Notes under the pieces: generated by a model
Told to the model about the DNA's origin: nothing
Database searches by the model: none
Seen by the model: only the letters and a program-made list of their open reading frames with translations
In this document: positions 7,314 to 29,974 of the stretch, one piece after another
Position numbering within the stretch: position 1 is the stretch's first letter
How the letters are laid out: each line of letters opens with the position of its first letter
Translations under genes and position numbers: made by a program
Assembly: GCA_031414775.1 (NCBI GenBank)
Contig: JANOQI010000041.1
Span: 1-64,000 of the forward strand
From: Synechococcales cyanobacterium VAR_4_metabat_354
GTDB lineage: Bacteria; Cyanobacteriota; Cyanobacteriia; Cyanobacteriales; Chamaesiphonaceae
Length of the DNA stretch: 64,000 nt
Direction: 5' to 3'

Positions 7314-7544
7314 CTTTCATCAATCTTGCCATCCAGATACTGGCCAGCTAAGTTAGGGAACTTATTTCCACTTTTCCATGATGTTGGTAGTGTGATGGCG
7401 ATTAACGTTGATACATCAATTTTACAAGCCTATTCAATAAAATCATCGTTCAAATTGCTGACCAGAGTTTCGGCTAGTTTGGTTTAGCTCAATTAACTAC
7501 CAGCTCAATAATTTTTATTACTCTTGTCTAAGAATTAAAGTACT

Positions 7545-8042
7545 TCAAAAATTAAAGTGTTGTTTGATCATTGCCCAGCGAGAACAGTCCCAGTAGTCGA
7601 TATGGGCGGTAATCAAATTGTCGGCGCTAATACTCAATTCGCTCCAGCCGGTGACAGAAATACGTGGTTTCCAGGGTAGTGGGGCATCCCAACTCATTGT
7701 CCAACGGGTTTTTAGGCCGTTACTAACTTCTTCGATGCTATGGAGGTCGAGCTGGAGGTTTTTGAACCAAGTAGTAATAAAGCCAATCATCTTTTGGTAG
7801 CGCGCTAGCCCTCGAAAGTCGTACATTGGATCTTTGAAGTACACATCTGGGCTGTAGATGCTGTAGGTTTGAGCCTCCGGAAACTTGGCGTAGTCGGCTT
7901 TGATAATGGCGATCAGGTCAGTTGGGGACATGGGCTGGTTGGCGAAAATAAGTTTTCTATATTTTCCTTTGAATATATCTCTTCCGTCACAAAGTTGCCT
8001 TTGGTTAATGTCTGGCGGGGTGACAACGTAGTTGGCCAGCAA
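7545..8042 (-). CDS. DUF2358 (SnoaL/NTF2-like) protein
   Basis: DY..FP..QTYSIY..DVYFKDP...FRG...Y; RW.MSW..PLPWKPRI.V.GWSEL; HIDYW. True start is likely the internal MSPTD. Confidence 0.8.
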   Translation of the reverse strand: MLANYVVTPPDINQRQLCDGRDIFKGKYRKLIFANQPMSPTDLIAIIKADYAKFPEAQTYSIYSPDVYFKDPMYDFRGLARYQKMIGFITTWFKNLQLDLHSIEEVSNGLKTRWTMSWDAPLPWKPRISVTGWSELSISADNLITAHIDYWDCSRWAMIKQHFNF

Positions 8043-8073
8043 GATTTAGCAATTTTGTTACAATGCCCAAACC

Positions 8074-9660
8074 ATGCTGCGGCTTCTTTTTATGTCTCTA
8101 ATTACTTCTGCTCATCTGCCGATCGAACTACCAGCTCAACTGCAAAGAATGGATCGGTTTTGGCAAGATTATCGATCGATCACTAAGCTAGTTCCCGAAA
8201 TGGTGGCGTCATTGGGTGACCAACGATTGGGTGATTTGGATAGCGATGTGGTGATTTGCGGTGGCACTTTAGGTATCTTTCTTGGTTGTGCGCTGCAACA
8301 GCGCGGTTGGCGAGTAGTCCTGCTGGAGCAGGGCCAGCTGCAAGGCCGTGCCCAAGAATGGAATATTTCCCGGAAAGAATTAGAGGCACTGCTGGAGCTG
8401 GAATTGTTGAATACCGCCGAGCTAGAGCAGTCGATCGCTACCACTTATAATCCAGCCCGAGTCGGTTTCCACGGTGGTATCGAACTATGGGTGCGCGATA
8501 TTTTAAATATTGGGGTCGATCCAGTGTTTTTATTAGCCACGCTGCGCGCCAAATTTTTAGTTGCTGGCGGACGATTACTAGAATATACAGGCTTCGATCG
8601 AGCAGAGATTTATGCTGATGGGGTGCTAGTTCGGGGCACCAGTCACGGCACTCCAATCTCGATCAAAGCGCGGTTGTTGCTAGATGTGATGGGACACTTT
8701 TCGCCGATCGCCCAGCAGGCTAGAGCTATTACTCAAGGACAGCAACCACCAGAGGGAGTTTGCTTAGTGGTGGGAAGCTGTGCCCAAGGGTTGCCCGAAA
8801 AGTCTTATGGTGACTTGATTTATACTTTTGCCCCCATTCGTAACCAGTGTCAATATTTTTGGGAAGCTTTTCCGGCGCGGACTGGCCGTACTACCTACAT
8901 GTTTACTTATGCCGATGCCGATCCACAGCGTCCCAGCTTCAGCCAGTTGTTAGAGGACTATTTATCGTGGTTACCTCAATATCAAGAGGTGGAACTGGAG
9001 GCCGTAAAGTTTCAGCGGATGTTGATGGGATTTTTTCCGGCTTATCAAAAATCACCACTACAAACTCCCTGGCCGCGTATTTTGCAAGTTGGGGATAGTA
9101 GCGGTATGCAGTCGCCGTTGAGCTTTGGGGGCTTTGGAGCGCTGATGCGTCATTTAGTGCGGCTAACCGATAGCATCCAGGCATGTTTGACTCACGACTT
9201 TTTGGCCGCCGCTGATCTCCGATCGATCCAGCCCTATCAACCTAATATGTCGGTGACTTGGTTATTTCAAAAGGCCATGAGTGTTGGTGTTGGCCAGCAG
9301 GTAGAACCAGGTCGGATTAACCAATTACTCTCTACTACTTTCATCGCCATGGAAAAATTGGGAGATCCGGTGTTGCGCCCCTTTTTGCAAGATATCGTGC
9401 AGTTTCCAGCCCTTTCTCAAACCATGTTTGCCATGGCGCTGGCCGATCCGGTGCTGGTCATGAAGATCGTTCAGCAAGTAGGCATCCAGACATTGATCGA
9501 CTGGGTTGGTCACTATGCCAACCTGGGCGGCTATAGTTTCCTTCACCAACTGGATCACAGCTTTCCTACCGCTGGTCAGAACCTCTCCCCTCAGCAACAA
9601 TACCGGTGGCAATGCTGGCGTAATGCTTGGCGCTTTGGTTCTGGTGGTGATTATTACTAA
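8074..9660 (+). CDS. cruP: FAD-dependent oxidoreductase, CruA/CruP lycopene-cyclase family (CruP-like)
   Basis: DVVICGGTLG FAD site, GR.QEWNISR.EL, YFWEAFPA, GDSSG.QSPLSFGGFG; length fits CruP. Confidence 0.72.
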   Translation: MLRLLFMSLITSAHLPIELPAQLQRMDRFWQDYRSITKLVPEMVASLGDQRLGDLDSDVVICGGTLGIFLGCALQQRGWRVVLLEQGQLQGRAQEWNISRKELEALLELELLNTAELEQSIATTYNPARVGFHGGIELWVRDILNIGVDPVFLLATLRAKFLVAGGRLLEYTGFDRAEIYADGVLVRGTSHGTPISIKARLLLDVMGHFSPIAQQARAITQGQQPPEGVCLVVGSCAQGLPEKSYGDLIYTFAPIRNQCQYFWEAFPARTGRTTYMFTYADADPQRPSFSQLLEDYLSWLPQYQEVELEAVKFQRMLMGFFPAYQKSPLQTPWPRILQVGDSSGMQSPLSFGGFGALMRHLVRLTDSIQACLTHDFLAAADLRSIQPYQPNMSVTWLFQKAMSVGVGQQVEPGRINQLLSTTFIAMEKLGDPVLRPFLQDIVQFPALSQTMFAMALADPVLVMKIVQQVGIQTLIDWVGHYANLGGYSFLHQLDHSFPTAGQNLSPQQQYRWQCWRNAWRFGSGGDYY

Positions 9661-9709
9661 CCCACCCGCCCTCGGCTAGAATGATGTCCATCCGCTTCTC
9701 GCCACCGCC

Positions 9710-10687
9710 ATGCAGCTTTTTATCGACACCAATATTCTCTTGTCTTTCTATGCATTTAACCAGGAAGACTTAGAGGAGCTAGGCAAGCTGGCCGATCTGG
9801 TAGCTGCTGGTGAAGTGACTTTACTAATTACCGATCAAATTCTGGATGAATTTTATCGCAACCGAGAACGGCGCATCGAAGGAGCGCTGAAATCTTTCTA
9901 CAGTCAAACTTTCAATCCTCAGCTACCTCAGATTTGCGCGGACTATCCGGAGGTCGAACAGCTGCTCACTACTCTGAAAGAATATGAAAAAGTCCACAGC
10001 GCCATCGTTGCCAAAATTTCGATCGATATCAAAGCTAAAAACCTCCAAGCCGATCGGATGCTACGCAGCTTGTTTGAAAAAGGGACGAAGCTGGTGATCG
10101 ATGCAGCGGTGATCGATCGAGCCAGACTGCGGATGAGTGTGGGTAATCCGCCAGGCAAGAATAATTCCTTGGGCGACGCGATTAACTGGGAATGCTTGCT
10201 GACAGAGGTACCCGATGGTACCGATCTGTTCTTGATTAGCGGTGATAAAGATTATAGTTCGGTCTTTAGTGAAGACGATTTGAGCGATTTTTTGCGCGAT
10301 GATTGGGAACGGCGCAAACAATCTACCATTTACTTCTATCGCCGCCTCTCCGGTTTTTGCAAGGAGCAGCTGCCCACCATTGGCATGGCCAATCTCCGGG
10401 ATCGAGATTTTTTAGTGCGGGAGTTGGCCAGTAGTCAATCTTTAGCCGATGTTCACAAATATATCGGCAAACTCCGCACCTATCCCGAGTTTACCGCTCC
10501 TCAAGTCAACGGTATGGTAATGGCTGTCTTGCATAATCAGCGCGTGGCTTGGGCGATCGAAGAAGATGACATCCACAGCTTTTGGCAAGATTTGATAAAT
10601 CGGTATGAGCGCTATCTCGACCCGGCAGCACTCGATCGATTGAAACTGCTGTTGGCTCCACCAGACCCGGGGAACGTTACTTTTTAA
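9710..10687 (+). CDS. PIN-domain protein (DUF4935/PIN_12-like)
   Basis: N-terminal FIDTNILL, DEF.RNR, PPGK...GDAINWE, ISGDKDY acidic PIN residues. Confidence 0.75.
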   Translation: MQLFIDTNILLSFYAFNQEDLEELGKLADLVAAGEVTLLITDQILDEFYRNRERRIEGALKSFYSQTFNPQLPQICADYPEVEQLLTTLKEYEKVHSAIVAKISIDIKAKNLQADRMLRSLFEKGTKLVIDAAVIDRARLRMSVGNPPGKNNSLGDAINWECLLTEVPDGTDLFLISGDKDYSSVFSEDDLSDFLRDDWERRKQSTIYFYRRLSGFCKEQLPTIGMANLRDRDFLVRELASSQSLADVHKYIGKLRTYPEFTAPQVNGMVMAVLHNQRVAWAIEEDDIHSFWQDLINRYERYLDPAALDRLKLLLAPPDPGNVTF

Positions 10688-10861
10688 TGTTGAGTGGGAG
10701 CAGTAGATATAATATGAATAACATCCAGTTCTTGTGCAGACCGCTCCCAAATAATAGACAGAGCCATAGAGTCGCTAACTGTCCAACAGCTAACTTCTGG
10801 GAATGAACTATAGTCAGCACATATTTCCTAGCATTTAATATCAAGCGAGAGATTTTAATCC

Positions 10862-11278
10862 ATGACTCTAACCTCTATTTTGGTGGCAGTCGATGAAACC
10901 CCCTATTCGGCTCAAGTCATTGCTGCAATTGAGTCTCTACAGTTAGTTCCTACTGCTAAGATTGTGCTGTGTCACATCATTCCGACTAAGCAGGTAGAGT
11001 TGTCTGCCGATCTCCCCCACCGAGTTGGCTCCGATTATCCAGAGGTGATCCAGCAGCTCCAGAGCTATCAAGAGCACCTGAATTACCACAGTGAGTTGGA
11101 AATAGTGACTGGCGAGCCAGCGACCGAAATTGTCCGCTTGGCAAATATTCATCACTGCCAACTAATTTTGATTGGTAGTCGTGGCCTGATGGGGATCGAT
11201 CGGATCATTCAACGCTCGGTTAGTAGTCAAGTGGTTGAAGAAGCAACTTGTTCGGTGTTGGTCGTCAAAACCAATTAG
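10862..11278 (+). CDS. Universal stress protein
   Basis: ILVAVD..., G.PA.EIVRLA....LI.IGSRG......SVS..VV..A.CSVLVVK. Confidence 0.9.
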   Translation: MTLTSILVAVDETPYSAQVIAAIESLQLVPTAKIVLCHIIPTKQVELSADLPHRVGSDYPEVIQQLQSYQEHLNYHSELEIVTGEPATEIVRLANIHHCQLILIGSRGLMGIDRIIQRSVSSQVVEEATCSVLVVKTN

Positions 11279-11682
11279 CACCCGCCATTGGTGCGATTAC
11301 GACCAAAATCTAGCTAGCCAATAGATTAAATAATATATTTCTAACGCCTATAACGCTTGATAGACAAAGCTTATAGCTCAATCAATTTGATTAAGTCTAA
11401 TTACTCATTAAACTGTTGAATTTGATATTATTGGAGATGTTTGGAGAGGTCTAGGGGCAAATATGCAGAGAAAAATAACAAAGAAAGTATGAAAATCAAC
11501 ATAATTTAAGAATTTAAGTCTTCCAAAATATGCTTTCACCTATTAGAATAAGTCAGTGCAAATCTCGTTGAATCAAAGCTTCGGGGATTCTTCAGGTAGA
11601 AATCCTGACCGTACCTCCTCCGTATCTAGATTAATCATTGAGAAGCTCAACCCAATTTCCTTAGAACTAATGGAGACATTCA

Positions 11683-12009
11683 ATGAATAAAGGTGAATTA
11701 GTCGATCAGGTTGCTGATAAAGCTGCAGTTACTAAAAAGCAAGCAGACACCGTTCTCTCTGCTGCCTTGGAAGTGATTATGGAAGCCGTATCCAATGGTG
11801 ATAAGGTCACCTTGGTGGGCTTTGGTTCGTTTGAACCTAGACAGCGCCAGAAGCGTGAAGGTCGTAACCCCCGCACTGGTGAAAAGATGGAAATCCCCGC
11901 TACTAAGGTACCGGCGTTCTCGGCAGGTAAATTGTTTAAAGACAAAGTATCTGATTCTAAGGCAGCTCCGGTAGCAGCTAAAACTGCGACAGCAGCCAAG
12001 AAAAAGTAG
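11683..12009 (+). CDS. hup: HU family DNA-binding protein with Ala/Lys-rich tail
   Basis: MNKGELV, LVGFGSFE.R.R..REGRNP.TGE.M.IPA..VPAFSAGK. Confidence 0.96.
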   Translation: MNKGELVDQVADKAAVTKKQADTVLSAALEVIMEAVSNGDKVTLVGFGSFEPRQRQKREGRNPRTGEKMEIPATKVPAFSAGKLFKDKVSDSKAAPVAAKTATAAKKK

Positions 12010-12014
12010 GCTGA

Positions 12015-13082
12015 TTGAAACAATCCCCAACTCACGGTGGAAATCTGGCCTGGGCAGCTGCAATTGCTAGCTGCTCAGCTGATCGCATTTTGGATTTCTC
12101 CGCTAGCATTAATCCCCTGGGTCCCTCCCCGGGGGTGATTACCGCCATTGGTCAACACTTATCCAAAATTGACCAGTATCCTATTCCGGGCTACCAAGAA
12201 CTCTGCCAAGCGTTGGCTCAGCACCACCACATTGATCGCGATTGGATTTTGCCGGGTAATGGAGCTGCTGAATTATTGACCTGGGCTGGCCGGGAATTGG
12301 CTAATCAGACCCAGACGATACTGCTTACTCCAGCTTTTAATGACTATGCTCGGGCACTGACGGCCTTTGGCGCTCATATCGACAGGTATCCCTTCATTGA
12401 TGCCCAAGGACAGCTCCAAGATTTAGAACAAGTGCTGGCTAAGGCTCCAGCGACCGCTGGACTACTCATTAACAATCCCCATAACCCGACCGGCCAGTTA
12501 TTTGACAAACAGCTGCTAATGAGCTGCTTAAAGAAATTTGCCCTCGTCGTAGTCGATGAGTCTTTTATTGATTTTGTGCCGCCAGAGCAAAGTTTGGTGG
12601 ATGTAGTCACAAAATATCCCAATCTGATTATCATTCGCTCTTTGACCAAGTTTTACAGTTTACCGGGGCTGCGAGTCGGCTATTGCATTAGCCATCCTGA
12701 TCGGTTGCGGCAGTGGCAAGCTTGGCGCGATCCTTGGCCAGTTAATCATTTGGCAGAAGTCGCTGCCATAGCGGCTCTTGCTGATCAAGATTTTGTCGAT
12801 CGAACTTGGCAGTGGTACAACATTGCTCAGCCGGAGATGTTTACCAGTCTGCAAGCTATTTCTGGTCTCCAGGTTTACCCCAGTGCCGCTAACTTTTTTC
12901 TATTACGAGCCAATCGGCCAGTTCCTGATCTCCAGCGGCAGTTGTTACAAAAGTTCCAGATTTTAATCCGAGACTGTCTAAGCTTTCCCGAACTGGGAGC
13001 CAATTATGGGCGGGTGGCGGTGAAGTCGATCGCTGATAATCAAAAATTGTTGCTAGCTCTAGCGCAAATTTTCAACCCGTGA
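12015..13082 (+). CDS. cobD: L-threonine-O-3-phosphate decarboxylase
   Basis: HGGN, DFSASINPLG, NNPHNPTG, DESFIDF, RSLTKFYSLPGLRVGY (PLP lysine). Confidence 0.88.
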   Translation: MKQSPTHGGNLAWAAAIASCSADRILDFSASINPLGPSPGVITAIGQHLSKIDQYPIPGYQELCQALAQHHHIDRDWILPGNGAAELLTWAGRELANQTQTILLTPAFNDYARALTAFGAHIDRYPFIDAQGQLQDLEQVLAKAPATAGLLINNPHNPTGQLFDKQLLMSCLKKFALVVVDESFIDFVPPEQSLVDVVTKYPNLIIIRSLTKFYSLPGLRVGYCISHPDRLRQWQAWRDPWPVNHLAEVAAIAALADQDFVDRTWQWYNIAQPEMFTSLQAISGLQVYPSAANFFLLRANRPVPDLQRQLLQKFQILIRDCLSFPELGANYGRVAVKSIADNQKLLLALAQIFNP

Positions 13083-17621: not shown

Positions 17622-18641
17622 CTAGAGAGCTTTCACAAAAGAGCTATCCACTAAGTCCTTACCCGCTAGCACCTTAGTTATTTTACCTGCTTTGACAAGC
17701 AGTGGTGCTGCCGAGTTAATACTGTTAATGGCATTGAGCGGATTTTTCTCATCGAAAACGATCGACTTATTCGCAGCCAGATTCATGATGCGCACCAGCG
17801 GAATTTGTGCTGATACTTCTTCCGGGGCAGCTGATGTCCATTTAGCCAATAACGCATTGGCCTCTTGGGGATTGGCTTCAGCAAATTTCATGCCCTTTTC
17901 AATAGCTCGCAAGTAAGCCATAATGTCTCCCTTGCGGCTTTGCAGTACCGAGCTTTCGGCGGCTAAACCGTTGGCGATAGTATTACTTCCTTTGGCTGTA
18001 TAGAGAACTTTGGATCCTGGTCTGCCCTTCAAAGCTTTAGTGATGAAAGGTTCATAGATAGTGGCTGCATCCACTTTACCCGCCACAAAAGCCGCATGGG
18101 CATCCGCAACTGCTAAGGATTCGATTTTTACATCCTTCTCCGTTAACCCGACCGATGCCAAATACTTATTGGTAAATACCACTTCATAAGGAACATCTTC
18201 CCGTGCTAACTTCTTGCCCTTCAGATCAGCTGGTGAATTGATCCCATTCCCAACGATTGCATCCACATCACCCGAGTAGTCCGAAGCATAAATAAACTTG
18301 AGATCTGGAGCTTTGGCGGCTAGTACCAGCAAATCTAAAGCCACCAACCAAGACATATCTATTTTCTTGGATAATAGCGCCGTGTTCACTTCCGTAACAC
18401 TTTGGAAGGCTATGTGTTGAACTTCAATTCCTTCTTCTTTAAAAAATCCTTTGACTTCGGCCAAATGGGCACTGCCCCAACCAATCCAAGGAATCAGGGC
18501 AATTCGCAAGGGGGCTTTAGCGGCAGAAGTTTTAGCCGCATCTTTTGGTGCTGTCTGTTGGCCACAGCTCCCCAAAATTGATGTAGAAACTGCACCCATT
18601 GTTAATAAGGCAGAAGAACGGAGAATATCTCTTCGACGCAT
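17622..18641 (-). CDS. ABC transporter substrate-binding lipoprotein (SsuA/THI5/NitT-TauT type)
   Basis: Tat-like MRRRDIL and lipobox LGSC; PW.GW, KGFF.EEG, DLKGKK, GKVDAA..YEP. Confidence 0.85.
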   Translation of the reverse strand: MRRRDILRSSALLTMGAVSTSILGSCGQQTAPKDAAKTSAAKAPLRIALIPWIGWGSAHLAEVKGFFKEEGIEVQHIAFQSVTEVNTALLSKKIDMSWLVALDLLVLAAKAPDLKFIYASDYSGDVDAIVGNGINSPADLKGKKLAREDVPYEVVFTNKYLASVGLTEKDVKIESLAVADAHAAFVAGKVDAATIYEPFITKALKGRPGSKVLYTAKGSNTIANGLAAESSVLQSRKGDIMAYLRAIEKGMKFAEANPQEANALLAKWTSAAPEEVSAQIPLVRIMNLAANKSIVFDEKNPLNAINSINSAAPLLVKAGKITKVLAGKDLVDSSFVKAL

Positions 18642-18707
18642 AGTTTTTACTTTTTGATGTTTAGAACAAGTGAGATTAGCTATCGAAAAACTGGTTTTCT
18701 AGCAAGT

Positions 18708-19553
18708 TCAGGCTTTATTATGATCTGCCCAGGGTGTTAGCACAATGGCCAATCGATGGAATATGTAGTCAGTGACCAATCCAATCAGCCCGATCAGGAC
18801 AATACAAAACAATACTTTATCGGTGTTGAGATATCGTTGAGACTGAATAATCCGAAATCCTAAACCTGATTGAGCCGCAATTAACTCGGCAAACACCAAA
18901 AAATTCCAAGCACCAGCAATATTCACTCGCAATGTATCTAAAATGCTCGGCAAAGATGCTGGTAAAATCACCTTCCATAAAATTTCGCGGCGATTGGCAC
19001 CCAGCGTATAAGCCGCATTTAGTAAATCATCGCTAATAAACTTCACCGCATCGGCAATCATGATCGTATTGTAAAGAACAATCCCCAGAAAAATCATGAT
19101 AATTTTAGCGTTTTCTTCCAGCCCGACCCAGATCATGACTAGGGGCACAAAAGCGTTCACCGGCATGTAGCGAACTGTGCCCACCAAAGGTTTGAATAAG
19201 CTATCAATACTCTGAAAGGTACCAGTCGCCAGACCCAAAGGGATGCCGATGATGGCAGCTGCTAAAAATCCGCCCAGGACTCGGCCAGTGCTGATCAAAA
19301 CGTCTGGTAGCAAGGTTCCTTCCTGCCACATTTTCCAGCCAGCGGCTAAAACCGCAGTGGGGGAAGGCAAGAAAGTAGCTGATGTAAAACCGCCATAGCT
19401 CAGAATTGACCAAAGTAAAAGCGGTACAGTCAATCCAATAATCGGCATTAAAATTTTGAGCCGGGGAGGAATCTCTTGCCGAATACTCCAAAATGGCGAA
19501 GGCTGAAGATGTTTGCGACGAGAACCAACGGACTGAGATGAAGAGCCTGTCAT
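18708..19553 (-). CDS. ABC transporter permease (NitT/TauT family)
   Basis: FLPSP..V, S..RV..GF, AAYTLGA.R (EAA loop), AELIAA.SGLG. Confidence 0.9.
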   Translation of the reverse strand: MTGSSSQSVGSRRKHLQPSPFWSIRQEIPPRLKILMPIIGLTVPLLLWSILSYGGFTSATFLPSPTAVLAAGWKMWQEGTLLPDVLISTGRVLGGFLAAAIIGIPLGLATGTFQSIDSLFKPLVGTVRYMPVNAFVPLVMIWVGLEENAKIIMIFLGIVLYNTIMIADAVKFISDDLLNAAYTLGANRREILWKVILPASLPSILDTLRVNIAGAWNFLVFAELIAAQSGLGFRIIQSQRYLNTDKVLFCIVLIGLIGLVTDYIFHRLAIVLTPWADHNKA

Positions 19554-19629
19554 AATTACGCTGTTTTTAATGGTGACTAACTGCTGAGTTGGTTGCTAGG
19601 AATGTGTAGACCATCCTGACATCTATTTT

Positions 19630-20445
19630 TTAATGTCCTAAGGAATGGACAACTTTTCTTTTAATCTGAATAAACTGTGGTTCTAATTTAAGTTCTAGCT
19701 CGCGCTGATCGGGCAGATCAACTTGAATTTCGTCTTTAATACAGCCGGGGTGAGTGCCCATTACATAGATACGCTGTGCTAAGAAGATGGCTTCTTCCAC
19801 ATCGTGAGTCACCATCAAAATTGTAGTTTGGGTGCGTTCCCATAGCTCCTGCATAAATTTTTGCATTTGTTCTTTGGTTTGGGCATCTAGGGCGCCAAAG
19901 GGTTCATCCATCAGCAGCACTGCCGGTTTATTGGCCAGGGCACGGGCGATCGCTACCCGTTGCTTCATGCCTCCAGAAAGTTGTTTGGGATAAGCATCGG
20001 CAAACTTAGTCAGCCCGACAACTTCGAGGTAATAGGCAACCTGCTGCTGGCGATCGGACTTCGATAGACCTTTTAATTCCAAGCCAAAGCTAATGTTATC
20101 GGCGACTGTTCGCCAGGGAAAGAGGGTGTAGTTTTGAAAGACCATCCCTCGATCGGCACCAGGACCTAAGACCAGTTCATCTTCTAGCAATATTTGTCCG
20201 GCGGAAGGTTGTTCTAAGCCAGCAATAATTTTTAGCAAGGTGGACTTGCCACATCCGGAGGCACCGACTAAACAGACAAACTCATTAGCATAGAGATGAA
20301 TGTTGATGTTATCTAATACTTTCAGTTTTTTATTACCGGTGAAGGCAAAAGTTTTGTCCAGGTGGCTTACGCGCAGTTGGCAGTGCTGGGTAACTTTATC
20401 AGCCTCTGGATTATTACCAGACAGAGGGAAGCTCTGATCAAACAT
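19630..20445 (-). CDS. ABC transporter ATP-binding protein (NitT/TauT family)
   Basis: GASGCGKST, LSGGMKQR, LLMDEPFGALD, VTHD. Confidence 0.93.
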   Translation of the reverse strand: MFDQSFPLSGNNPEADKVTQHCQLRVSHLDKTFAFTGNKKLKVLDNINIHLYANEFVCLVGASGCGKSTLLKIIAGLEQPSAGQILLEDELVLGPGADRGMVFQNYTLFPWRTVADNISFGLELKGLSKSDRQQQVAYYLEVVGLTKFADAYPKQLSGGMKQRVAIARALANKPAVLLMDEPFGALDAQTKEQMQKFMQELWERTQTTILMVTHDVEEAIFLAQRIYVMGTHPGCIKDEIQVDLPDQRELELKLEPQFIQIKRKVVHSLGH

Positions 20446-20510
20446 AATTGCAAGAGTGATAGTTTATAAGATTGATAGTTTGCACTAAATATTAATACAA
20501 CGGGGTAGCT

Positions 20511-21278
20511 TTGATGGGTAGAGTAGCAGCCAAAGCATGCGTGGTCACCGGTGCTGGATCGGGAATTGGGCAGGCGATCGCGGAGCGATTGGCTTTAGAA
20601 GGAGGTAAAGTGCTGTGTGTGGATATCAATGAAGCCGCAGTGGCAGCAACGGTGCAGGGTATTCAGGCTGCTGGCGGGGTCGCGGCGGTGGTGGTTGCTG
20701 ATGTGAGTGACTCATCTGCTGCTGATAACTTTGTACAGCGCTGTGTCGATTTATATGGTCGGATTGATGTGTTGGTGAACAATGCTGGTGTTAATCTGCC
20801 CGGGGTTTTTCACGAGGTGAGCAATGAGGTGATCGATCGAACCTTAAATGTAAATGTCAAAGGCTCCATTTATGGTAGCCGAGCGGCGATTCCGCATATG
20901 CTACGGCAGCAAGCTGGCTCGATCATCAACATGTCGAGCGTGAATGGGTTAGTGGCCGAGCCGTTCTTGTCTATATACGCAACTTCTAAGGGGGCGATCG
21001 TGATGCTCACCAAAGGTATTGCTTTGGATTATGCCAAGCAGGGAATTCGCTGCAATTGCATTTGCCCGGGCTGGGTGGATACGCCGATTAATTACGCCCA
21101 TGCCGAGATGATGGGCGGACTGGAAAAAATTTATGCTTCGATCGATCAATTTCAGCCGATCGGTCGTCCGGGTGCACCCAGTGAAATTGCTAACTTAGCC
21201 TTATTTTTGGCTTCCGATGAAGCCTCTTTTATGACTGGGTCGATTATTACCGCCGATGGGGGAATGACAATTCATTAG
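20511..21278 (+). CDS. Short-chain dehydrogenase/reductase
   Basis: TGAGSGIG, NNAG, YATSKGA. Confidence 0.9.
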   Translation: MMGRVAAKACVVTGAGSGIGQAIAERLALEGGKVLCVDINEAAVAATVQGIQAAGGVAAVVVADVSDSSAADNFVQRCVDLYGRIDVLVNNAGVNLPGVFHEVSNEVIDRTLNVNVKGSIYGSRAAIPHMLRQQAGSIINMSSVNGLVAEPFLSIYATSKGAIVMLTKGIALDYAKQGIRCNCICPGWVDTPINYAHAEMMGGLEKIYASIDQFQPIGRPGAPSEIANLALFLASDEASFMTGSIITADGGMTIH

Positions 21279-24645: not shown

Positions 24646-25013
24646 GTAATTTTTGATGCGTTGGTTAATTTAGTTACCTTCAATGTCAACCAATCTAGTC
24701 CAAGTGTTGGAGGGCTGTATAGTAATAGGGCTAAATGGGAATTTCTTTGACCCCATAATCTTTATCTAATTTCATGCTAACAGCAAACGTTCGATCGACT
24801 TGATCCAATTTGGGCATTTCTGGGTGGGATTGTGCTGAGATATGGGGGCGATTTACTGAAGTTTCTGGGTCAATTTGGTACACAACGCTTGACCTCTATC
24901 CTGACAATCGCCGAAACCAACCCGGTTTATAGTGCGATGTGTTGGGAACTCGATCGGAATTGGAATTTTTTCTGCTTCGCTGGATTGTACAACTTAGCTC
25001 AATGCCAATAATT

Positions 25014-25781
25014 TTAGCTTTGGGCATACCCAGCATCTACTACTATTGTTTGACGAGTAATCACTTTCGAGGTGTCGGAAGCTAGAAATAAATAAGTTCC
25101 AACCAACTCATCTGGCGTGATTTCAATGGGGATAGATTGCTGTTCATATAAATTCTTTTGCTTGGCTTCTGGTGTTACCAATTGCTCAATCTGCCTTTCG
25201 GTCATTGTCCAACCTGGAGCTACGGCATTAACTCGGATATGGTGTTTTCCCACCGCCTCCGCCAAGCTGCGAACCATCCCAATAATTGCTGCTTTAGTTG
25301 CATTGTAGGCAATCATTTCTGGTTTAGCAACCCAGACAACGTGAGAACTGGTCATAATAATACTACCTTGACTAGCTTTAATCATATCTGGTAAAAGTTC
25401 GCGGCAAGTCACAAAGTAATGCACTACATTCAGTTGAAATAAGTCGTTCCATTGCTTTTCAGACATTTCCAATAATGGATATCTTGGATCGTACCCAGCA
25501 TTATTGATTAAAACATCGACCACTTTTTTTTCTTTTCTGATTTCACCTAATATTTCTGTCAGCGCTAAGGTATTAGTTAAGTCTACAGAGTAGAAATTAA
25601 CATTGCCTTCCAACTGTTCACATTCTTGAGCTACTATCAAGCCTTTCTTGTGATCTTTATCAAGAATAGTTACATTAGAACCCTGTTGAGCAAAAGCGCG
25701 AGTCAAAGCTTCTCCAATGCCATTACAACCACCAGTGATCAGGACGTGCTTGTTTTTTAAATCGGGATAAATCGGATGCAT
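25014..25781 (-). CDS. SDR oxidoreductase, resembling aldose/xylose 1-dehydrogenase-type SDRs
   Basis: IYPDLK.K.VLITGG..GIG, NNAG.D.R, YNATKA, IRVN.V.PGW.MTERQ. Confidence 0.85.
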   Translation of the reverse strand: MHPIYPDLKNKHVLITGGCNGIGEALTRAFAQQGSNVTILDKDHKKGLIVAQECEQLEGNVNFYSVDLTNTLALTEILGEIRKEKKVVDVLINNAGYDPRYPLLEMSEKQWNDLFQLNVVHYFVTCRELLPDMIKASQGSIIMTSSHVVWVAKPEMIAYNATKAAIIGMVRSLAEAVGKHHIRVNAVAPGWTMTERQIEQLVTPEAKQKNLYEQQSIPIEITPDELVGTYLFLASDTSKVITRQTIVVDAGYAQS

Positions 25782-25846
25782 ATTTTTCCTGTTATTGTGA
25801 TATTTAAGAACATGTATGATAAAGATTAAAATATAAATAATTTATC

Positions 25847-26650
25847 TCAAATCGCATTTTCAGTTAGCCAATTTTTGCTCGTAGTAACATATGATTTTAT
25901 TTCATCCAAGCTACCCATAACTACAGATCCAGGAGTTTGTCGAGGGTAAGCACATTCAACTATGATTGGGTTAGCATATTGAATACTATCTAAAGCTGCA
26001 ATGTGCTTAGCAAAATCAATATGCCCAAAGCCAATTCCTTTTCTATTGGAATCAGATATTTGATATATGCTGAGTTTACTTCCGCACTGAATTATTGCCT
26101 TGATTGGATCTTTTTCTTCAAGATTCATATGAAATGCATCCAAAATAATAGTCATGTTTGAGGCATTAATTTGACTCAGCATAGAAAGAACATCGGTACT
26201 TTCGAGGATAAAACGGCACAAGTAGCGATTTAGTGGCTCAAAACCCAAATTAATATTAAATTGCTGAGCATAAGTAGCTAGCTGCTGACAGGATTCTATC
26301 AATAATTCTATAGAGCCTAAATAAGTGCCCATTTGGGGCTGAATATATTCATGGCAAGTAACAGTTGGATGACCTAATTCAGCACCATAATCAATTAATC
26401 TCTTGTAATAATCAAGAGCAAAATTTCTAATATTGGAATCGTTAGCAGCTAAATCTACGTTACCTGGAGTAAGAGAATAAATTTCCAAATCTCTATCTGT
26501 AAAAACTTTCCTAGCATATTGGCTGGAAATGCGGTCAATGTCTACAAAAAGTTCTACACCATCAAATTTAATTTCAGCAATTATATCGGCGATGTCAGCT
26601 AGGTCAATGTCCCCAAAACTCCACGTAGTTACACCAATTTTTCTTTTCAT
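25847..26650 (-). CDS. Sugar phosphate isomerase/epimerase TIM barrel (ketose 3-epimerase/IolO-like)
   Basis: FEPLNRY, DAFHMNLEE, SDSNR...G.GHIDF, IIVE metal-binding pattern. Confidence 0.85.
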   Translation of the reverse strand: MKRKIGVTTWSFGDIDLADIADIIAEIKFDGVELFVDIDRISSQYARKVFTDRDLEIYSLTPGNVDLAANDSNIRNFALDYYKRLIDYGAELGHPTVTCHEYIQPQMGTYLGSIELLIESCQQLATYAQQFNINLGFEPLNRYLCRFILESTDVLSMLSQINASNMTIILDAFHMNLEEKDPIKAIIQCGSKLSIYQISDSNRKGIGFGHIDFAKHIAALDSIQYANPIIVECAYPRQTPGSVVMGSLDEIKSYVTTSKNWLTENAI

Positions 26651-26733
26651 ATTTTAGTACTAATTAAATTGACAACTGGATTGAAAAAAAACACAAAAAT
26701 TTCTGGCTAAGACTAAAAGCATACTCTACACAC

Positions 26734-27960
26734 TTATTTTACTAAGGTACGCATTTTGGGCAAAAGTATATTCATTAAGCCAAATATAACAGTAGAAAAA
26801 CAGGCACTTACATAAAAAACCCCTTGCAGTCCCCAAACACTAAATGCTGTTCCAGCTAAGACTGGTCCCAATGCTTGTCCTAACGATAAAGCTGTAGCAT
26901 TGACTGCCATAAATCCAGCTCGATATTCTTGTGGTGCTAATCCACCTAACAAAGCTTGAGTTGAAGGAAAAATCATGCCATGTGCGGCTCCAAACAACAG
27001 GCTAGGAATCAGCAATAACCAAACATTATGCAAAGCAGGGGTAATTATTAGCGCTACCATATAGACAATAAAAGAAACTTTTACTAGCATCACCTCTGAA
27101 AGTGACTGGGTGAATAGTGCAAGTTGTGAAGACACAAAAGCCATTGATAGCGCCATGCTTGCTAGAATGATGCCAATGACTACATTGGAAGCTCCTAAGG
27201 TATCACTTGCCAAAATAGGAATGTAAGTAAAATAGGCACCAAATAAAAGAATAAATAAGGCAACTACAGCAATTAGCAATCCAATTACTTGACGGTTGTC
27301 AATACTGCACCAAATTTTTTGCAAATAATCTTGATAATACGAGTCTGATTTCTTTTGCAGCTCGGGTACCTGGAGAAAAAATAGCACTAAAATTCCAATC
27401 GGGATTGCAGTTAATGACATGAGAAAAGGATACCGCCATCCAAGTGTTGCTAGCCCTCCACATAGCAGTGGATACAACGCTAAGCTAATACCGATCGCGC
27501 TACCATTGAATGCCATCGCTGATGTTAGTGCTTTCCCGGCATAAAGATCGCTGATCAATGTCAGCGCTAGCGATTCTAAAGGAGCAGCACCGATTCCTTG
27601 CAAAAAGCGCATCTCTAACAAAGTACGGAAATTGTAGCTAAAGGCACAAGCAACGCCAGCAAATGCGAATAACAATAGTGCTGGCACCAAAATCTGCTTC
27701 CGTCCAAAGCGATCTGCTAATATTCCAGACACTGGAGTTCCAAGTGCGATCGGAATAACAAATGCTGTAATTATCCATCCAATTTGTTCGGGAGGAATTT
27801 TAAAATCTTCTGCTATTGCAGGTAATGCTGGTCCAATACTACTAGAACCTAAAACGGCTATCAACGTGACCGTAATGACGATTTGGAGGTTTCTATCATG
27901 ATGAACATTGCTGGGATATGTGCTTGTCTCACGATTATTTGGTGTTTTCAAGAACTTCAT
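26734..27960 (-). CDS. MFS transporter (DHA1-like, probable exporter)
   Basis: PALP.IA..F, G.LADRFGRK (motif A), RFLQGIG, GWRYPF; 12 TM helices. Confidence 0.88.
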   Translation of the reverse strand: MKFLKTPNNRETSTYPSNVHHDRNLQIVITVTLIAVLGSSSIGPALPAIAEDFKIPPEQIGWIITAFVIPIALGTPVSGILADRFGRKQILVPALLLFAFAGVACAFSYNFRTLLEMRFLQGIGAAPLESLALTLISDLYAGKALTSAMAFNGSAIGISLALYPLLCGGLATLGWRYPFLMSLTAIPIGILVLFFLQVPELQKKSDSYYQDYLQKIWCSIDNRQVIGLLIAVVALFILLFGAYFTYIPILASDTLGASNVVIGIILASMALSMAFVSSQLALFTQSLSEVMLVKVSFIVYMVALIITPALHNVWLLLIPSLLFGAAHGMIFPSTQALLGGLAPQEYRAGFMAVNATALSLGQALGPVLAGTAFSVWGLQGVFYVSACFSTVIFGLMNILLPKMRTLVK

Positions 27961-28081
27961 CTCTTCACAAACAGTTTATTAATCTAAAAGGGCGTGGCCA
28001 ATAACTCTAAACTGCCATTTATGACATTAGAGTTACAAAAATTCGGAAGTAGTCAAGCTATCTCACCGAAGTTGACCGTGT

Positions 28082-28123
28082 ACCTAGCTCACCTCAGATT
28101 TGACAATCTGAGATAAGCTAGGT
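28082..28123 (-). terminator. 19-bp stem-loop between the cyclase and MFS genes (terminator or mRNA-stabilising hairpin)
   Basis: ACCTAGCTCACCTCAGATT-TGAC-AATCTGAGATAAGCTAGGT. The two mismatches become G-U pairs on the minus (coding) strand. Confidence 0.55.
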
Positions 28124-28184
28124 TACAGAAAATATTTTTAATCTGGGGCTAAAACTTGCGGACTAAGACAAATGGTATTGCTTC

Positions 28185-29369
28185 CTAAGCAATCATCGAC
28201 AATTCGCGAGTTTTGGCATTTCTTTTCTGAGCCTCATATTGCAAATACTTCTCAATAACTTGCTTTACCAATTTTTGATCAACTGTAACTAGGTGGTCTC
28301 CTTCGGGATCACAGCATTGACCGATTTTATCCAGTAAAATGAAGCGTAGTTCTGTCCCTGTTTTTTTGTTGTCTGCAATCATTGCATCCATCAGCTTTTC
28401 AGCAGTTATGTATTCAGGAAGAAGATTATTAAACCCCAGCTTTTCGTCAATTACATAATAGTGTCGTTCTACATCTGCTTGCGAAATCAATCCCATTTCT
28501 TTGCCGAGTTCCGCCGCAATCTTCATGCCAAACGAAACAGCTTCCCCATGAGATATTCTGCCTTGTTCTAACCATTCAATTCCATGACCGAATGTGTGAC
28601 CATACTCAAGAATCAGCCCATAGTTTTTTTCGCTAGGATCTTGTTTGAGAATCTCTAATTTCGATAGAATTATTTTGTATGCAATTTCATGCAACTCTTG
28701 TGCAGAGAAATTTACTTCGGGGTTAAGAGATTTTTCTAAGTAACTTAGGAAGTTCTCATCAGAAATAAATCCATTTTTAATGCCTTCAATTATGCCACTG
28801 CGTCGCGAATTAACTGGGTCTGTCTTTAGATACTTCGTATCTGACCAAATAAATATTGGTGCATGGTAAAGACCGAAGTGATTTTTACCTGTTTTACCAT
28901 TAATAGCTTGTTTGTTGCTAAGTGTACTATCTGTTTGCCCCGTCATACTTGTCGGGACTTCGATAAAGCGAATGCCACGATAAATCAAGCCAGCCGCTAA
29001 ACCAACACAGTTGCCAACTGTTCCACCACCAAATGCTAGCAAAATAGATTTCTTTGATGCACCTTTAGCTATTAAGTTTTCGCAGGTTTCCTCTAAAACA
29101 GGGAAATATTTACATTTCTCTCCGGCAGGTACATATTCAAGCTCACAGGGATATTTAGCGCGAATTTTCTCGTATAGTTCTCTGCCGTATATCTCAAATA
29201 GATGTGGCTCAGTAAAGAAAAAGAGTTTGTCAAACTCATATTTGTCTAGCTCAGCAACAAAATTTTCTTGAATATCATATCCAAAATAAAAGGGGCTAGA
29301 TTGTTTTAAATGGGTGCTTAGTTGAATGACTTTCCCCGGTTCCCATTTCATTTTTTGGTCGTAATTCAT
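28185..29369 (-). CDS. Sugar-phosphate cyclase, 2-deoxy-scyllo-inosose synthase (BtrC)-like
   Basis: DHQS fold with DOIS-type residues: GGGTVGN, DSTLSNKQAIN, GKN, E..KN, D..EK..GLILEYGHTFGH.IE...QG.ISHGEAV, DNKK. Confidence 0.82.
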   Translation of the reverse strand: MNYDQKMKWEPGKVIQLSTHLKQSSPFYFGYDIQENFVAELDKYEFDKLFFFTEPHLFEIYGRELYEKIRAKYPCELEYVPAGEKCKYFPVLEETCENLIAKGASKKSILLAFGGGTVGNCVGLAAGLIYRGIRFIEVPTSMTGQTDSTLSNKQAINGKTGKNHFGLYHAPIFIWSDTKYLKTDPVNSRRSGIIEGIKNGFISDENFLSYLEKSLNPEVNFSAQELHEIAYKIILSKLEILKQDPSEKNYGLILEYGHTFGHGIEWLEQGRISHGEAVSFGMKIAAELGKEMGLISQADVERHYYVIDEKLGFNNLLPEYITAEKLMDAMIADNKKTGTELRFILLDKIGQCCDPEGDHLVTVDQKLVKQVIEKYLQYEAQKRNAKTRELSMIA

Positions 29370-29650: not shown

Positions 29651-29974
29651 GAACCCCCACTCATACAAATTTCAGAATACTTTCTGGAAAAAGTAATAGT
29701 AAAATTTTTCACTTGACTTACCAAGAATATCACACTATTGAAGATTCTTATCAATAAAGAGTGTGTTTTGCTACAAAAAAGGAAATTCGCCTATTGAGAA
29801 CTAGATTAAACTTCCTGCTCTTTAGACTAAACTCCAGCCGCGTAATGGTTAGGTAGGATATGATTATCATGGCGCTGATTCTATTTTGTCGCCACGATTT
29901 TAAGGTGACTGATGTCTAAACAACCCAATTACCGTAAAGTTGACTAAAATTTGGGAGTGTAACTTTCCCCAGCC

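Follow-up and report, generated by a model that had tools for sequence, protein, structure and literature searches.

The 64,000-nucleotide window analysed here (positions 1 to 64,000 of contig JANOQI010000041.1, assembly GCA_031414775.1, from the Synechococcales cyanobacterium VAR_4_metabat_354) carries a cassette of four co-oriented genes that encode a sugar-phosphate cyclase, a major facilitator superfamily (MFS) transporter, a triosephosphate isomerase (TIM) barrel protein and a short-chain dehydrogenase/reductase (SDR). The cassette apparently specifies a real and undescribed pathway, a variant of sugar-phosphate-cyclase chemistry that is neither the aminoglycoside, nor the AroB, nor the ebo version. 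Its cyclase belongs to a clade that is sister to 2-deoxy-scyllo-inosose (DOI) synthases, the known entry to the aminoglycoside antibiotics, and this clade extends through several phyla with no nearby aminotransferase and with three alternative tailoring modules. Public databases label many of these cyclases DOI synthase, so that the gene itself is familiar but its pathway is not. A literature search, with subscription papers and patents mostly outside its scope, gave no description of the cassette and no natural cyanobacterial DOI pathway, in keeping with the preliminary description of this DNA, which knew of no characterised cyanobacterial system with this layout. The product favoured below, tentatively and at somewhat less than an even chance, is an exported polyphenol or quinone; gene evidence alone leaves the choice between a phenol or quinone and a deoxy-inositol unsettled, and every reaction and ecological role is inferred.

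The four genes had been placed between an SMR gene and dapB on one side and uvrC on the other, and the open reading frames (ORFs), with uvrC divergent, and their Pfam folds bear this out (Table 1). In gene order the domains are DHQ_synthase plus DHQS_C, MFS_1, AP_endonuc_2 and adh_short, and the intergenic gaps are 224 bp (cyclase-MFS), 83 bp (MFS-TIM) and 65 bp (TIM-SDR). No cassette protein reaches the cut-off of any named NCBIfam enzyme model. All four genes are intact and under purifying selection, with dN/dS values of 0.03-0.20 in 12 of 12 gene-by-locus comparisons (four genes against three related loci).

The predicted conversion of glucose 6-phosphate to DOI by the cassette cyclase is well supported by its sequence (the excerpted text of PMC4426668 gives an overview of the enzyme family and contains no DOI-synthase fingerprint). 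The best solved relative is the DOI synthase BtrC (2d2x, E 3e-56), followed by a 3-dehydroquinate (DHQ) synthase at 5.8e-43, and the alignment to 2d2x shows a DHQ-synthase-like fold in which the Glu, His and His that bind the metal are all present, as are the catalytic Lys and Glu residues. Counted from this alignment, K237, E247, G251, E255, H258, H262 and H274 correspond to BtrC K225, E235, G239, E243, H246, H250 and H262, the residues with catalytic roles in that enzyme. E255 (in EYGH) and N120 (in GGGxxxN) are present in 18 of 18 sampled clade members and in three annotated DOI synthases, and position 251 is small (G, A or C) in the sampled members; AroB rows carry N, D and R at the three sites, and NLGH and Arg of DHQ synthase are replaced by EYGH and Gly in the cyclase. 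A tree of 27 rows groups the 18 relatives in a single clade (99/98), with the three sequences annotated in their records as DOI synthases as its sister and with AroB apart. With BtrC nearest, the residues kept and the clade in this position, the earlier assignment to the DOI-synthase type stands. An AroB identity was rejected on the TIGR01357 score (243 bits against a cut-off of 305), the separate clade and the presence of another AroB in the genome. The genome also holds a third sugar-phosphate cyclase paralogue (G000:C62:31222-32211), presumably DDGS-like to judge from its motifs; such a reading suggests a mycosporine cluster elsewhere in the genome.

The cassette recurs as a unit. A cyclase scan of species-representative genomes (best 80 of 120 relatives) yielded 78 loci with flanks of up to 10 kb, some ended by contig edges. 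The order cyclase-MFS-TIM-SDR is found in 26 of them, and nine more have the TIM barrel and SDR without this MFS; the synteny check that the preliminary description had proposed thus shows that the cyclase does co-occur with these neighbours. The cassette also occurs in the named marine genera Okeania, Dapis, Trichodesmium and Crocosphaera. When metagenomes were scanned with the TIM barrel alignment (best 80 of 121), all close loci of sufficient length had this order too, and a SnoaL-cyclase-SDR-TIM variant was also seen. Of 301 genomes of the order, taken in a single draw, the cyclase is in 12, the cassette TIM barrel in 8 and an IolI-like TIM barrel in 4; the 8 and the 4 are disjoint and together account for all 12. 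Five metagenome loci are ~100% identical to genome loci and loci may also be shared with the 301-genome set; because the samples overlap, the three sets of counts are not additive. The cyclase always travels with a TIM barrel, and its clade spans cyanobacteria and several other phyla.

The preliminary description had also remarked that no BtrR/NeoB-type aminotransferase or glycosyltransferase accompanies the cyclase, and the wider sample agrees: two DegT/BtrR-type aminotransferase and two glycosyltransferase queries, taken from aminoglycoside-type loci and from the genome, matched in none of the 78 loci (tblastn, E <= 1e-6). The three strong DegT-family genes of the genome are all on other contigs. 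Among three control DOI-synthase loci from plasmids, two have aminoglycoside-type genes, both with glycosyltransferase, deacetylase and radical SAM genes and one also with a DegT-family aminotransferase. A Streptomyces plasmid (L186:6950-9663) has an annotated DOI synthase followed by an MFS gene only, with no annotated aminotransferase.

Sorted by TIM barrel, the 78 loci comprise 35 TIM+SDR, 24 IolI-like, 9 third-type and 10 unlabelled loci (several of the last end at contig edges), and no locus combines two of the types. Where the ORF caller favoured opposite-strand frames, labels were set by hand, for four TIM+SDR loci and one third-type locus. The three TIM barrel types are unrelated. The IolI/3U0H-like protein stands alone, with no SDR, and the third usually accompanies a Zn dehydrogenase. 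One MFS family serves 26 TIM+SDR, 6 IolI-like and 2 unlabelled loci. The MFS tree forces at least three changes between TIM+SDR and IolI-like types (starred branches), and the cyclase tree at least five to six, by a quick method with long branches flagged. Close relatives can hold different modules in the same slot (L027/L032 versus L031, L041 versus L042) with MFS proteins that are 90-93% identical, and no alignment column of the MFS or the cyclase separates the two types. The two modules have been swapped repeatedly in place behind a near-identical MFS. In one metagenome-assembled genome two cassettes coexist, of which the TIM+SDR one (L040) is intact and the IolI-type one (L058) is broken.

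Several variants of the layout were seen in passing. The cyclase is fused to an IclR-type regulator in L084:4197-6119 and L088:9992-11911, and an IclR gene lies directly upstream of it in L081, L082 and L085. Two Okeania loci (L034, L038) have tandem duplicate cyclases before the MFS gene, and a conserved helix-turn-helix gene of 79 amino acids (aa) precedes the cassette in 12 loci. Four picocyanobacterial-type loci (L065, L068, L073, L079) lack the MFS and have the order cyclase, phytase-like gene (with a hydrophobic N-terminus), SDR and TIM barrel; in three of the four the phytase-like ORF was called.

For the TIM barrel, residues and relatives support a substrate of the inosose (deoxy-inosose) class, data that indicate the class and not the reaction. 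'Epimerase' is here the name of a predicted fold only: in the structure model (pLDDT 93.9) the closest folds are ketose 3-epimerases (Z 31.9, root mean square deviation 2.1-2.4). The protein keeps E138, D171, H174, R203 and E232, with the catalytic glutamates E138 and E232 invariant, and it lacks both the full ketose 3-epimerase metal set (Glu-Asp-His-Glu) and the O1-binding Glu. NCBIfam models for relatives of the TIM barrel and SDR give 115, 92 and 204 bits against cut-offs of 300, 300 and 400. The nearest relatives outside cassettes, at 30-38% identity, adjoin iolG, and because three such operons also carry their own iolE, these relatives are probably inosose isomerases. The cassette clade is nested among them (support 100/98), and G101E, E144L and H197Q set all 17 rows from cassettes apart from the 7 that are linked to iolG; one of these 7 lacks His at 100 and yet has the same G/E/H. 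The metal-site His is replaced by Gln in 33 of 33 cassette TIM barrels, none of which has the NRYE motif; the IolI-like TIM barrel has Glu at this site (22 of 22). Positions 144 and 197 correspond to Glu158 and His211 of the ketose 3-epimerases, which bind the ketose O1 and the metal, respectively, according to an excerpt of PMC8167858. Loss of the O1 binder is expected for a substrate with a CH2 beside the carbonyl, which would therefore tie the TIM barrel to DOI. Despite these departures, the protein may still work like a ketose 3-epimerase. Separately, the iolG-adjacent subfamily (L187:6998-7816, L196:11998-12846, L189:6001-6837, L118, L114, L124) is a candidate non-IolI inosose isomerase.

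The SDR has intact TGGxxGIG, NNAG and YxxxK motifs and belongs to the classical NAD(H)-dependent SDRs; an acidic residue after beta-2 is the rule for NAD(H) enzymes, and Asp is found there in 31 of 31 cassette SDRs. Its top PDB matches are 7wwx, 9gwu (sulfoquinovose 1-dehydrogenase), 4lvu and 5itv (dihydroanticapsin 7-dehydrogenase), and its characterised relatives carry dehydrogenase names. It was rejected as a D-xylose 1-dehydrogenase XylB, since NF053674 gives 204 bits against 400 and XylB has a different gene context, an operon with sugar uptake and dehydratase genes. Enzymes of the aldose 1-dehydrogenase kind act at a carbon next to the ring oxygen. It is plausible that the ring CH2 of DOI would mimic a ring oxygen, placing the SDR either at C1 (reduction to quercitol) or at C3 (oxidation to a 1,3-dione).

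Sequence comparison supports export rather than import by the MFS: it matches MFS_1 at E 3e-56 versus Sugar_tr at E 1e-9, and its best NCBIfam matches are efflux models (the Bcr/CflA and BcbE exporters), all below cut-off. The preliminary description had left open whether a cyclitol is exported or retained; export fits, and retention as a compatible solute becomes the weakest of its proposed roles because the transporter resembles exporters.

Putting these enzymes together, the cassette would start from a hexose 6-phosphate and, using neither the shikimate pathway nor nitrogen, make a small benzenoid for export. The cyclase would close glucose 6-phosphate to DOI, the step that sequence supports. 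The NAD+-type SDR might then oxidise the C3 hydroxyl beside the ring CH2, the anomeric mimic, to give a 1,3-dione. The metal of the TIM barrel would bind the C1 carbonyl and C6 hydroxyl, E138 and E232 would form an enediolate, and the C5 hydroxyl would be expelled, so that the ring would aromatise to 1,2,4,5-tetrahydroxybenzene, the reduced form of 2,5-dihydroxy-1,4-benzoquinone; the SDR and TIM barrel steps could come in either order. The MFS would export the product. The pair 1,2,4,5-tetrahydroxybenzene / 2,5-dihydroxybenzoquinone is the best single guess, though on its own an unlikely one. Outside the cell the compound would probably serve as a reductant or chelator, for instance in mobilising iron or as a redox shuttle, or else as an allelochemical. 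There is a chemical parallel in PMC11467972, an excerpt of which has myo-inosose dehydrating to a tetrahydroxybenzene, and the available part of PMC12919712 likewise describes chemical aromatisation of inososes. Among the residues of the TIM barrel, E138, D171, H174, Q197, R203 and E232 can be matched by motif, within a weak overall similarity, to Glu134, Asp165, His168, Gln191, Arg210 and Glu239 of the aromatising QuiC1/QsuB enzymes, whose active-site set with Gln191 as metal ligand is given in an excerpt of PMC7442255. The QuiC1/QsuB-type model NF042435 matches at E 7e-9, and the correspondence of Q197 with Gln191 was counted for dehydration.

The lean towards a polyphenol or quinone in the window cassette arises because its module swaps in place with an IolI-like module that points to hydroxyquinol. 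The sister IolI-like cassettes, having no SDR, would stop one oxidation level lower. Hydroxyquinol is proposed as their product because their neighbours are phenol-handling genes and DOI minus two waters is hydroxyquinol. Such genes accompany IolI-like cassettes in several separate lineages. L023:9932-17918 has, co-oriented, the cyclase, an IolI-like TIM barrel, an intradiol dioxygenase, a flavin halogenase-like gene, a second MFS and a Na/H exchanger, and the five best PDB matches of the dioxygenase (PnpC, three named hydroxyquinol-type enzymes and one unnamed intradiol enzyme) come ahead of catechol dioxygenases. L044:9953-15430 has the cyclase with a vanadium haloperoxidase-like gene, a ureidoglycolate-lyase-like gene, a split MFS and an IolI-like TIM barrel; L052 has an intradiol-dioxygenase-domain gene, and L050 and L058 have UbiG-like methyltransferases. 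Five Desulfobacterales-like loci (L061, L062, L063, L069, L071; ~5,000-12,700) have cbb3-oxidase genes and, after them, ubiG, ubiE, the cyclase and an IolI-like TIM barrel. The IolI-like TIM barrel might thus aromatise DOI to hydroxyquinol though it descends from isomerases, and isomerase ancestry would therefore be compatible with dehydration. Two of these arrangements are of interest in their own right: the L023 run is a candidate pathway to a halogenated ring-cleavage product, and the five ubiG-ubiE loci could represent a hydroxylase-free route to a respiratory quinone via hydroxyquinol. UbiA-family genes, which occur in 5 of 5 of the ubiG-ubiE genomes and also in 14 of 14 controls, are uninformative here.

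The third module and the accessory genes also bear on the chemistry. The Zn dehydrogenase of the third type has as its best NCBIfam match the scyllo-inosose 3-dehydrogenase IolM (E 1e-34, far below cut-off), a match that fits oxidation at C3. A long cluster in Paenibacillus thailandensis (L074:9971-20634) begins with the cyclase and also has the third TIM barrel, a methyltransferase, a BtrH-like gene, a pyridoxal phosphate-dependent decarboxylase and an AMP-binding enzyme. In 15 of the 35 TIM+SDR loci there is a gene like cytochrome b561 (9) or like a quinone reductase, of the MDR family (7), versus 0 of 24 IolI-like loci; the unrelated L054 and L088 were dropped from the reductase cluster after their sequences were read. 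Sulfotransferase genes occur in three TIM+SDR loci and SnoaL genes in three, plus five near-identical metagenome loci with SnoaL, and look-ups of the cytochrome and SnoaL neighbours gave Pfam families only. With C3 oxidised and the C5 hydroxyl lost, the product would be hydroxyquinol with one more oxygen, which would account at once for the common exporter, the module swaps, the NAD-type SDR and the redox accessories. A broader scheme can be drawn, which as a whole is rather unlikely, if far from negligible: the cyclase clade would start a shikimate-independent, oxygenase-free route of two to three enzymes from glucose 6-phosphate to benzenoids, with IolI-like cassettes leading to hydroxyquinol that is methylated, halogenated, cleaved or built into a respiratory quinone, and with the window type adding an NAD+ oxidation that leads to 1,2,4,5-tetrahydroxybenzene or 2,5-dihydroxybenzoquinone as a secreted, iron-mobilising redox shuttle, recycled by cytochrome b561 and quinone reductase where these are present.

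A number of findings weigh against an aromatic product. The hydroxyquinol-type dioxygenase is known from a single locus, the window cassette is without a phenol-handling gene, and close copies of the accessory genes (cytochrome, reductase, sulfotransferase, SnoaL, dioxygenase) are absent from its genome. The TIM+SDR loci with accessory genes are related and hence not independent, and among genomes carrying an accessory gene it lies inside the cassette in 3 of 15 for the cytochrome and 1 of 4 for the reductase, so that neither is exclusive to cassettes. In two of three cases examined, cassette-free cytochrome b561-like copies follow ergothioneine-type genes; these copies (L202:747-5068, L203:4227-8956) come after GATase, DinB/FGE-sulfatase and histidine methyltransferase genes. 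The TIM barrel ranks closer to the epimerases (Z 31.9) than to QuiC1 (26.8), IolE (26.2) and AsbF (24.2), it retains both catalytic glutamates of the epimerases, and Gln at the metal site is not diagnostic, as it occurs in hydroxypyruvate-isomerase-type isomerases as well. Finally, thermodynamics readily allows NADH to reduce a ketone. In yeast, DOI is reduced enzymatically to scyllo- and vibo-quercitol, as related in the available text of PMC7348060.

This last precedent belongs to the strongest alternative, the quercitol route, which is a real possibility though a tentative one. The TIM barrel would epimerise DOI at C6, as IolI does to scyllo-inosose, the SDR would reduce C1 with NADH, and the stereochemistry is reckoned to give proto- or epi-quercitol, which the MFS would secrete as a protectant, a glycosidase inhibitor or a private carbon source for partner bacteria. 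Together with the yeast reaction (in the portion of PMC7348060 that was available), the route is the best fit to the ancestry of both enzymes: the cassette TIM barrel is nested among the iolG-linked, probably isomerase barrels with a separate iolE, both catalytic Glu are kept (the equivalent of Glu158, from the excerpted epimerase source, is Leu), and an aldose-1-dehydrogenase fold would suit DOI and a quercitol as a pair, CH2 standing where an aldose has its ring oxygen. The close-copy search, which found no redox accessory genes in the window's genome, also sits well with it. However, it leaves unexplained the repeated in-place exchange with a hydroxyquinol-pointing module behind an MFS that does not distinguish the two, and the cytochrome b- and quinone-reductase-like genes of the 15 loci, and the SDR is NAD-type with characterised relatives named dehydrogenases. 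The preliminary description had proposed that the TIM barrel and SDR turn the inosose into a quercitol; action of the TIM barrel on an inosose and a conserved, nitrogen-free cassette are retained from that proposal, and the quercitol product is not established.

A partly unsaturated cyclitol is quite unlikely. Here dehydration would give an enone that the SDR reduces to a conduritol-type tetrol, or oxidation by the SDR would yield a non-aromatised trihydroxy-cyclohexane-1,3-dione, a UV-B absorber by analogy with gadusol. Such products fit a dehydrating TIM barrel with an SDR, the shared exporter, the SnoaL genes and the MDR-family reductase, and conduritols appear as glycosidase inhibitors in excerpts of the literature; but neither compound is directly supported, and a 3-epimerase fold, which acts at the carbinol next to the carbonyl (PMC8167858, in part), would expel the C5 hydroxyl and so lead to aromatisation rather than to a conduritol.

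More improbable still is a cyclase that uses another sugar phosphate and makes a DOI stereoisomer, which would shift all downstream structures. The cyclase is far from BtrC and has a residue of its own clade, H164, which 14 of the 18 members sampled carry at a position that is Leu in AroB and in annotated DOI synthases; this clade-specific residue therefore makes another hexose phosphate slightly possible. Against this, all checked catalytic and metal residues of BtrC are kept, and the AroB-like models PRK06203 (159 bits, cut-off 333) and TIGR04425 (169 bits, cut-off 400), which are linked to EboD, are far under their cut-offs. EboD does offer a precedent, with mannose 6-phosphate as its substrate in the accessible part of PMC12904256. 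An ordinary sugar-catabolic operon, which the preliminary description had named as a refutation, or a chance cluster is very improbable: distant SDR and TIM barrel relatives do lie in catabolic operons with ABC importers, but the cyclase is committed to biosynthesis, the cassette loci share no recurring importer, kinase or iolCDE genes, and the cassette TIM barrel never occurs without the cyclase in the 301 genomes.

Comparison with known systems places an aromatic product in context. The nearest analogue of the cassette appears to be the ebo/thallusin system (EboD, EboE, EboC), which, as far as the available text of bioRxiv 10.64898/2026.05.21.724671 goes, feeds a deoxy-inosose into an aromatic scaffold; the likeness would extend to a deoxy-inosose cyclase, a xylose-isomerase-like TIM barrel, presence in cyanobacteria and a cyclitol-derived aromatic scaffold. 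The cassette differs in its cyclase subfamily, in adding an SDR and MFS and in implying no aspartate-derived nitrogen. It was rejected as an ebo cluster, since the core eboB, eboC, eboE and eboF were not found with the cyclase. No UbiA prenyltransferase, TatD or phosphatase is in the cassette or its annotated recurring neighbours (the whole genome was not searched for ebo genes), and one locus, L024, has a UbiA-family gene ~3 kb upstream. The 2-deoxystreptamine clusters (BtrC, BtrR) share the cyclase type, with BtrC nearest among solved structures and active-site residues kept, whereas their BtrR-type aminotransferase and glycosyltransferases are in 0 of 78 cassette loci. From inositol catabolism (IolG, IolI, IolE; Thermotoga IolM, IolN, IolO) come the iolG-linked relatives of the TIM barrel, the IolI-like alternative module and the IolM-like dehydrogenase of the third type, but the cassette starts at a sugar phosphate and proceeds outward through an exporter, lacks iolCDEB and differs from the catabolic relatives in three active-site columns. 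The dehydroshikimate dehydratases QuiC1/QsuB and AsbF have the same barrel, the six QuiC1/QsuB residues that can be matched by motif and, in the excerpted sources, a ring-aromatising dehydration; they differ in their weak similarity to the cassette TIM barrel and in their substrate, a shikimate-pathway carboxylate. The ketose 3-epimerases (DTE/DPE/LRE) and aldose 1-dehydrogenases (XylB, sulfoquinovose dehydrogenase) are closest to the TIM barrel and SDR in fold and sequence, although the cassette NCBIfam scores are under cut-off and the O1-binding Glu and His metal ligand are replaced in the TIM barrel.

Either product would be new biology. A benzenoid would mean a very short route from sugar to aromatic, would add a class of compounds to those that cyanobacteria exude, perhaps acting in iron uptake or allelopathy, and would supply enzymes for a conversion that the available parts of PMC11467972 and PMC12919712 describe only chemically. 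A quercitol would give defined genes for a deoxy-inositol made from glucose 6-phosphate.

The cassette is an acquired, horizontally mobile unit on a low-GC insert. Its GC content is 0.375 versus 0.456 for the genome, below 99.2% of 3,297 genome windows of 4.9 kb, and CGATCG occurs twice in it versus ~11 predicted from the genome rate. The cyclase is present at >90% identity in 3 of 12 genomes of the genus. An AAA-ATPase gene is broken at the cassette, with one collinear remnant on each side. The left remnant matches G007 at 76% over its full length and, over 24789-24956, an intact 409-aa AAA gene at 79% in G003, a genome without the cassette; the right remnant matches the next stretch of the same gene at 77-78% in G003 and G007. 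G007 has the two remnants next to each other, upstream of its cyclase gene. No transposase is at the locus, and a repeat search gave no terminal repeats and no target duplication. The SMR gene, dapB and uvrC were rejected as members and lie outside the unit because their GC is host-like and each flanks only one of 78 loci (uvrC 1/78, SMR/dapB 1/78).

Scans for promoters (19 versus 17.2 expected) and terminators (3 versus 3.6 expected) were at chance level, and Rfam gave no real match and no riboswitch ahead of the SMR gene. The spacer between cyclase and MFS could form a stem-loop of -33.8 kcal/mol (z -6.4, 0 of 200 shuffles as good), whose only Rfam match is at chance level (E 0.94). A complementary stem is visible by eye in four of four aligned loci, with a different sequence and a long loop in L036. 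It might act as an mRNA stabiliser or attenuator.

Table 1. Coordinates of the cassette genes and associated features in the window
Feature	Position	Strand	Description	Basis
Sugar-phosphate cyclase	28185..29369	-	DOI-synthase type, 394 aa, first cassette gene	Pfam, BtrC alignment, tree
Stem-loop	28079..28124	-	~20 pairs, cyclase-MFS spacer	Folding energy versus shuffles
MFS transporter	26734..27960	-	Efflux-like, 408 aa	Pfam/NCBIfam
TIM barrel	25847..26650	-	Metal-dependent, ketose 3-epimerase fold, 267 aa	Structure model, residue columns
SDR	25014..25781	-	Classical, aldose-1-dehydrogenase group, NAD(H)-type, 255 aa	Motifs, PDB matches
AAA-ATPase left remnant	24712..24956	+	Decayed, broken at cassette	Similarity to G003/G007
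AAA-ATPase right remnant	29814..29932	+	Same gene	Similarity to G003/G007

Elsewhere in the window, at 17622-21278, an ABC transporter that reads from its sequence as of the nitrate/sulfonate/taurine type has opposite it another SDR, which is unrelated, at 27% to the one in the cassette.

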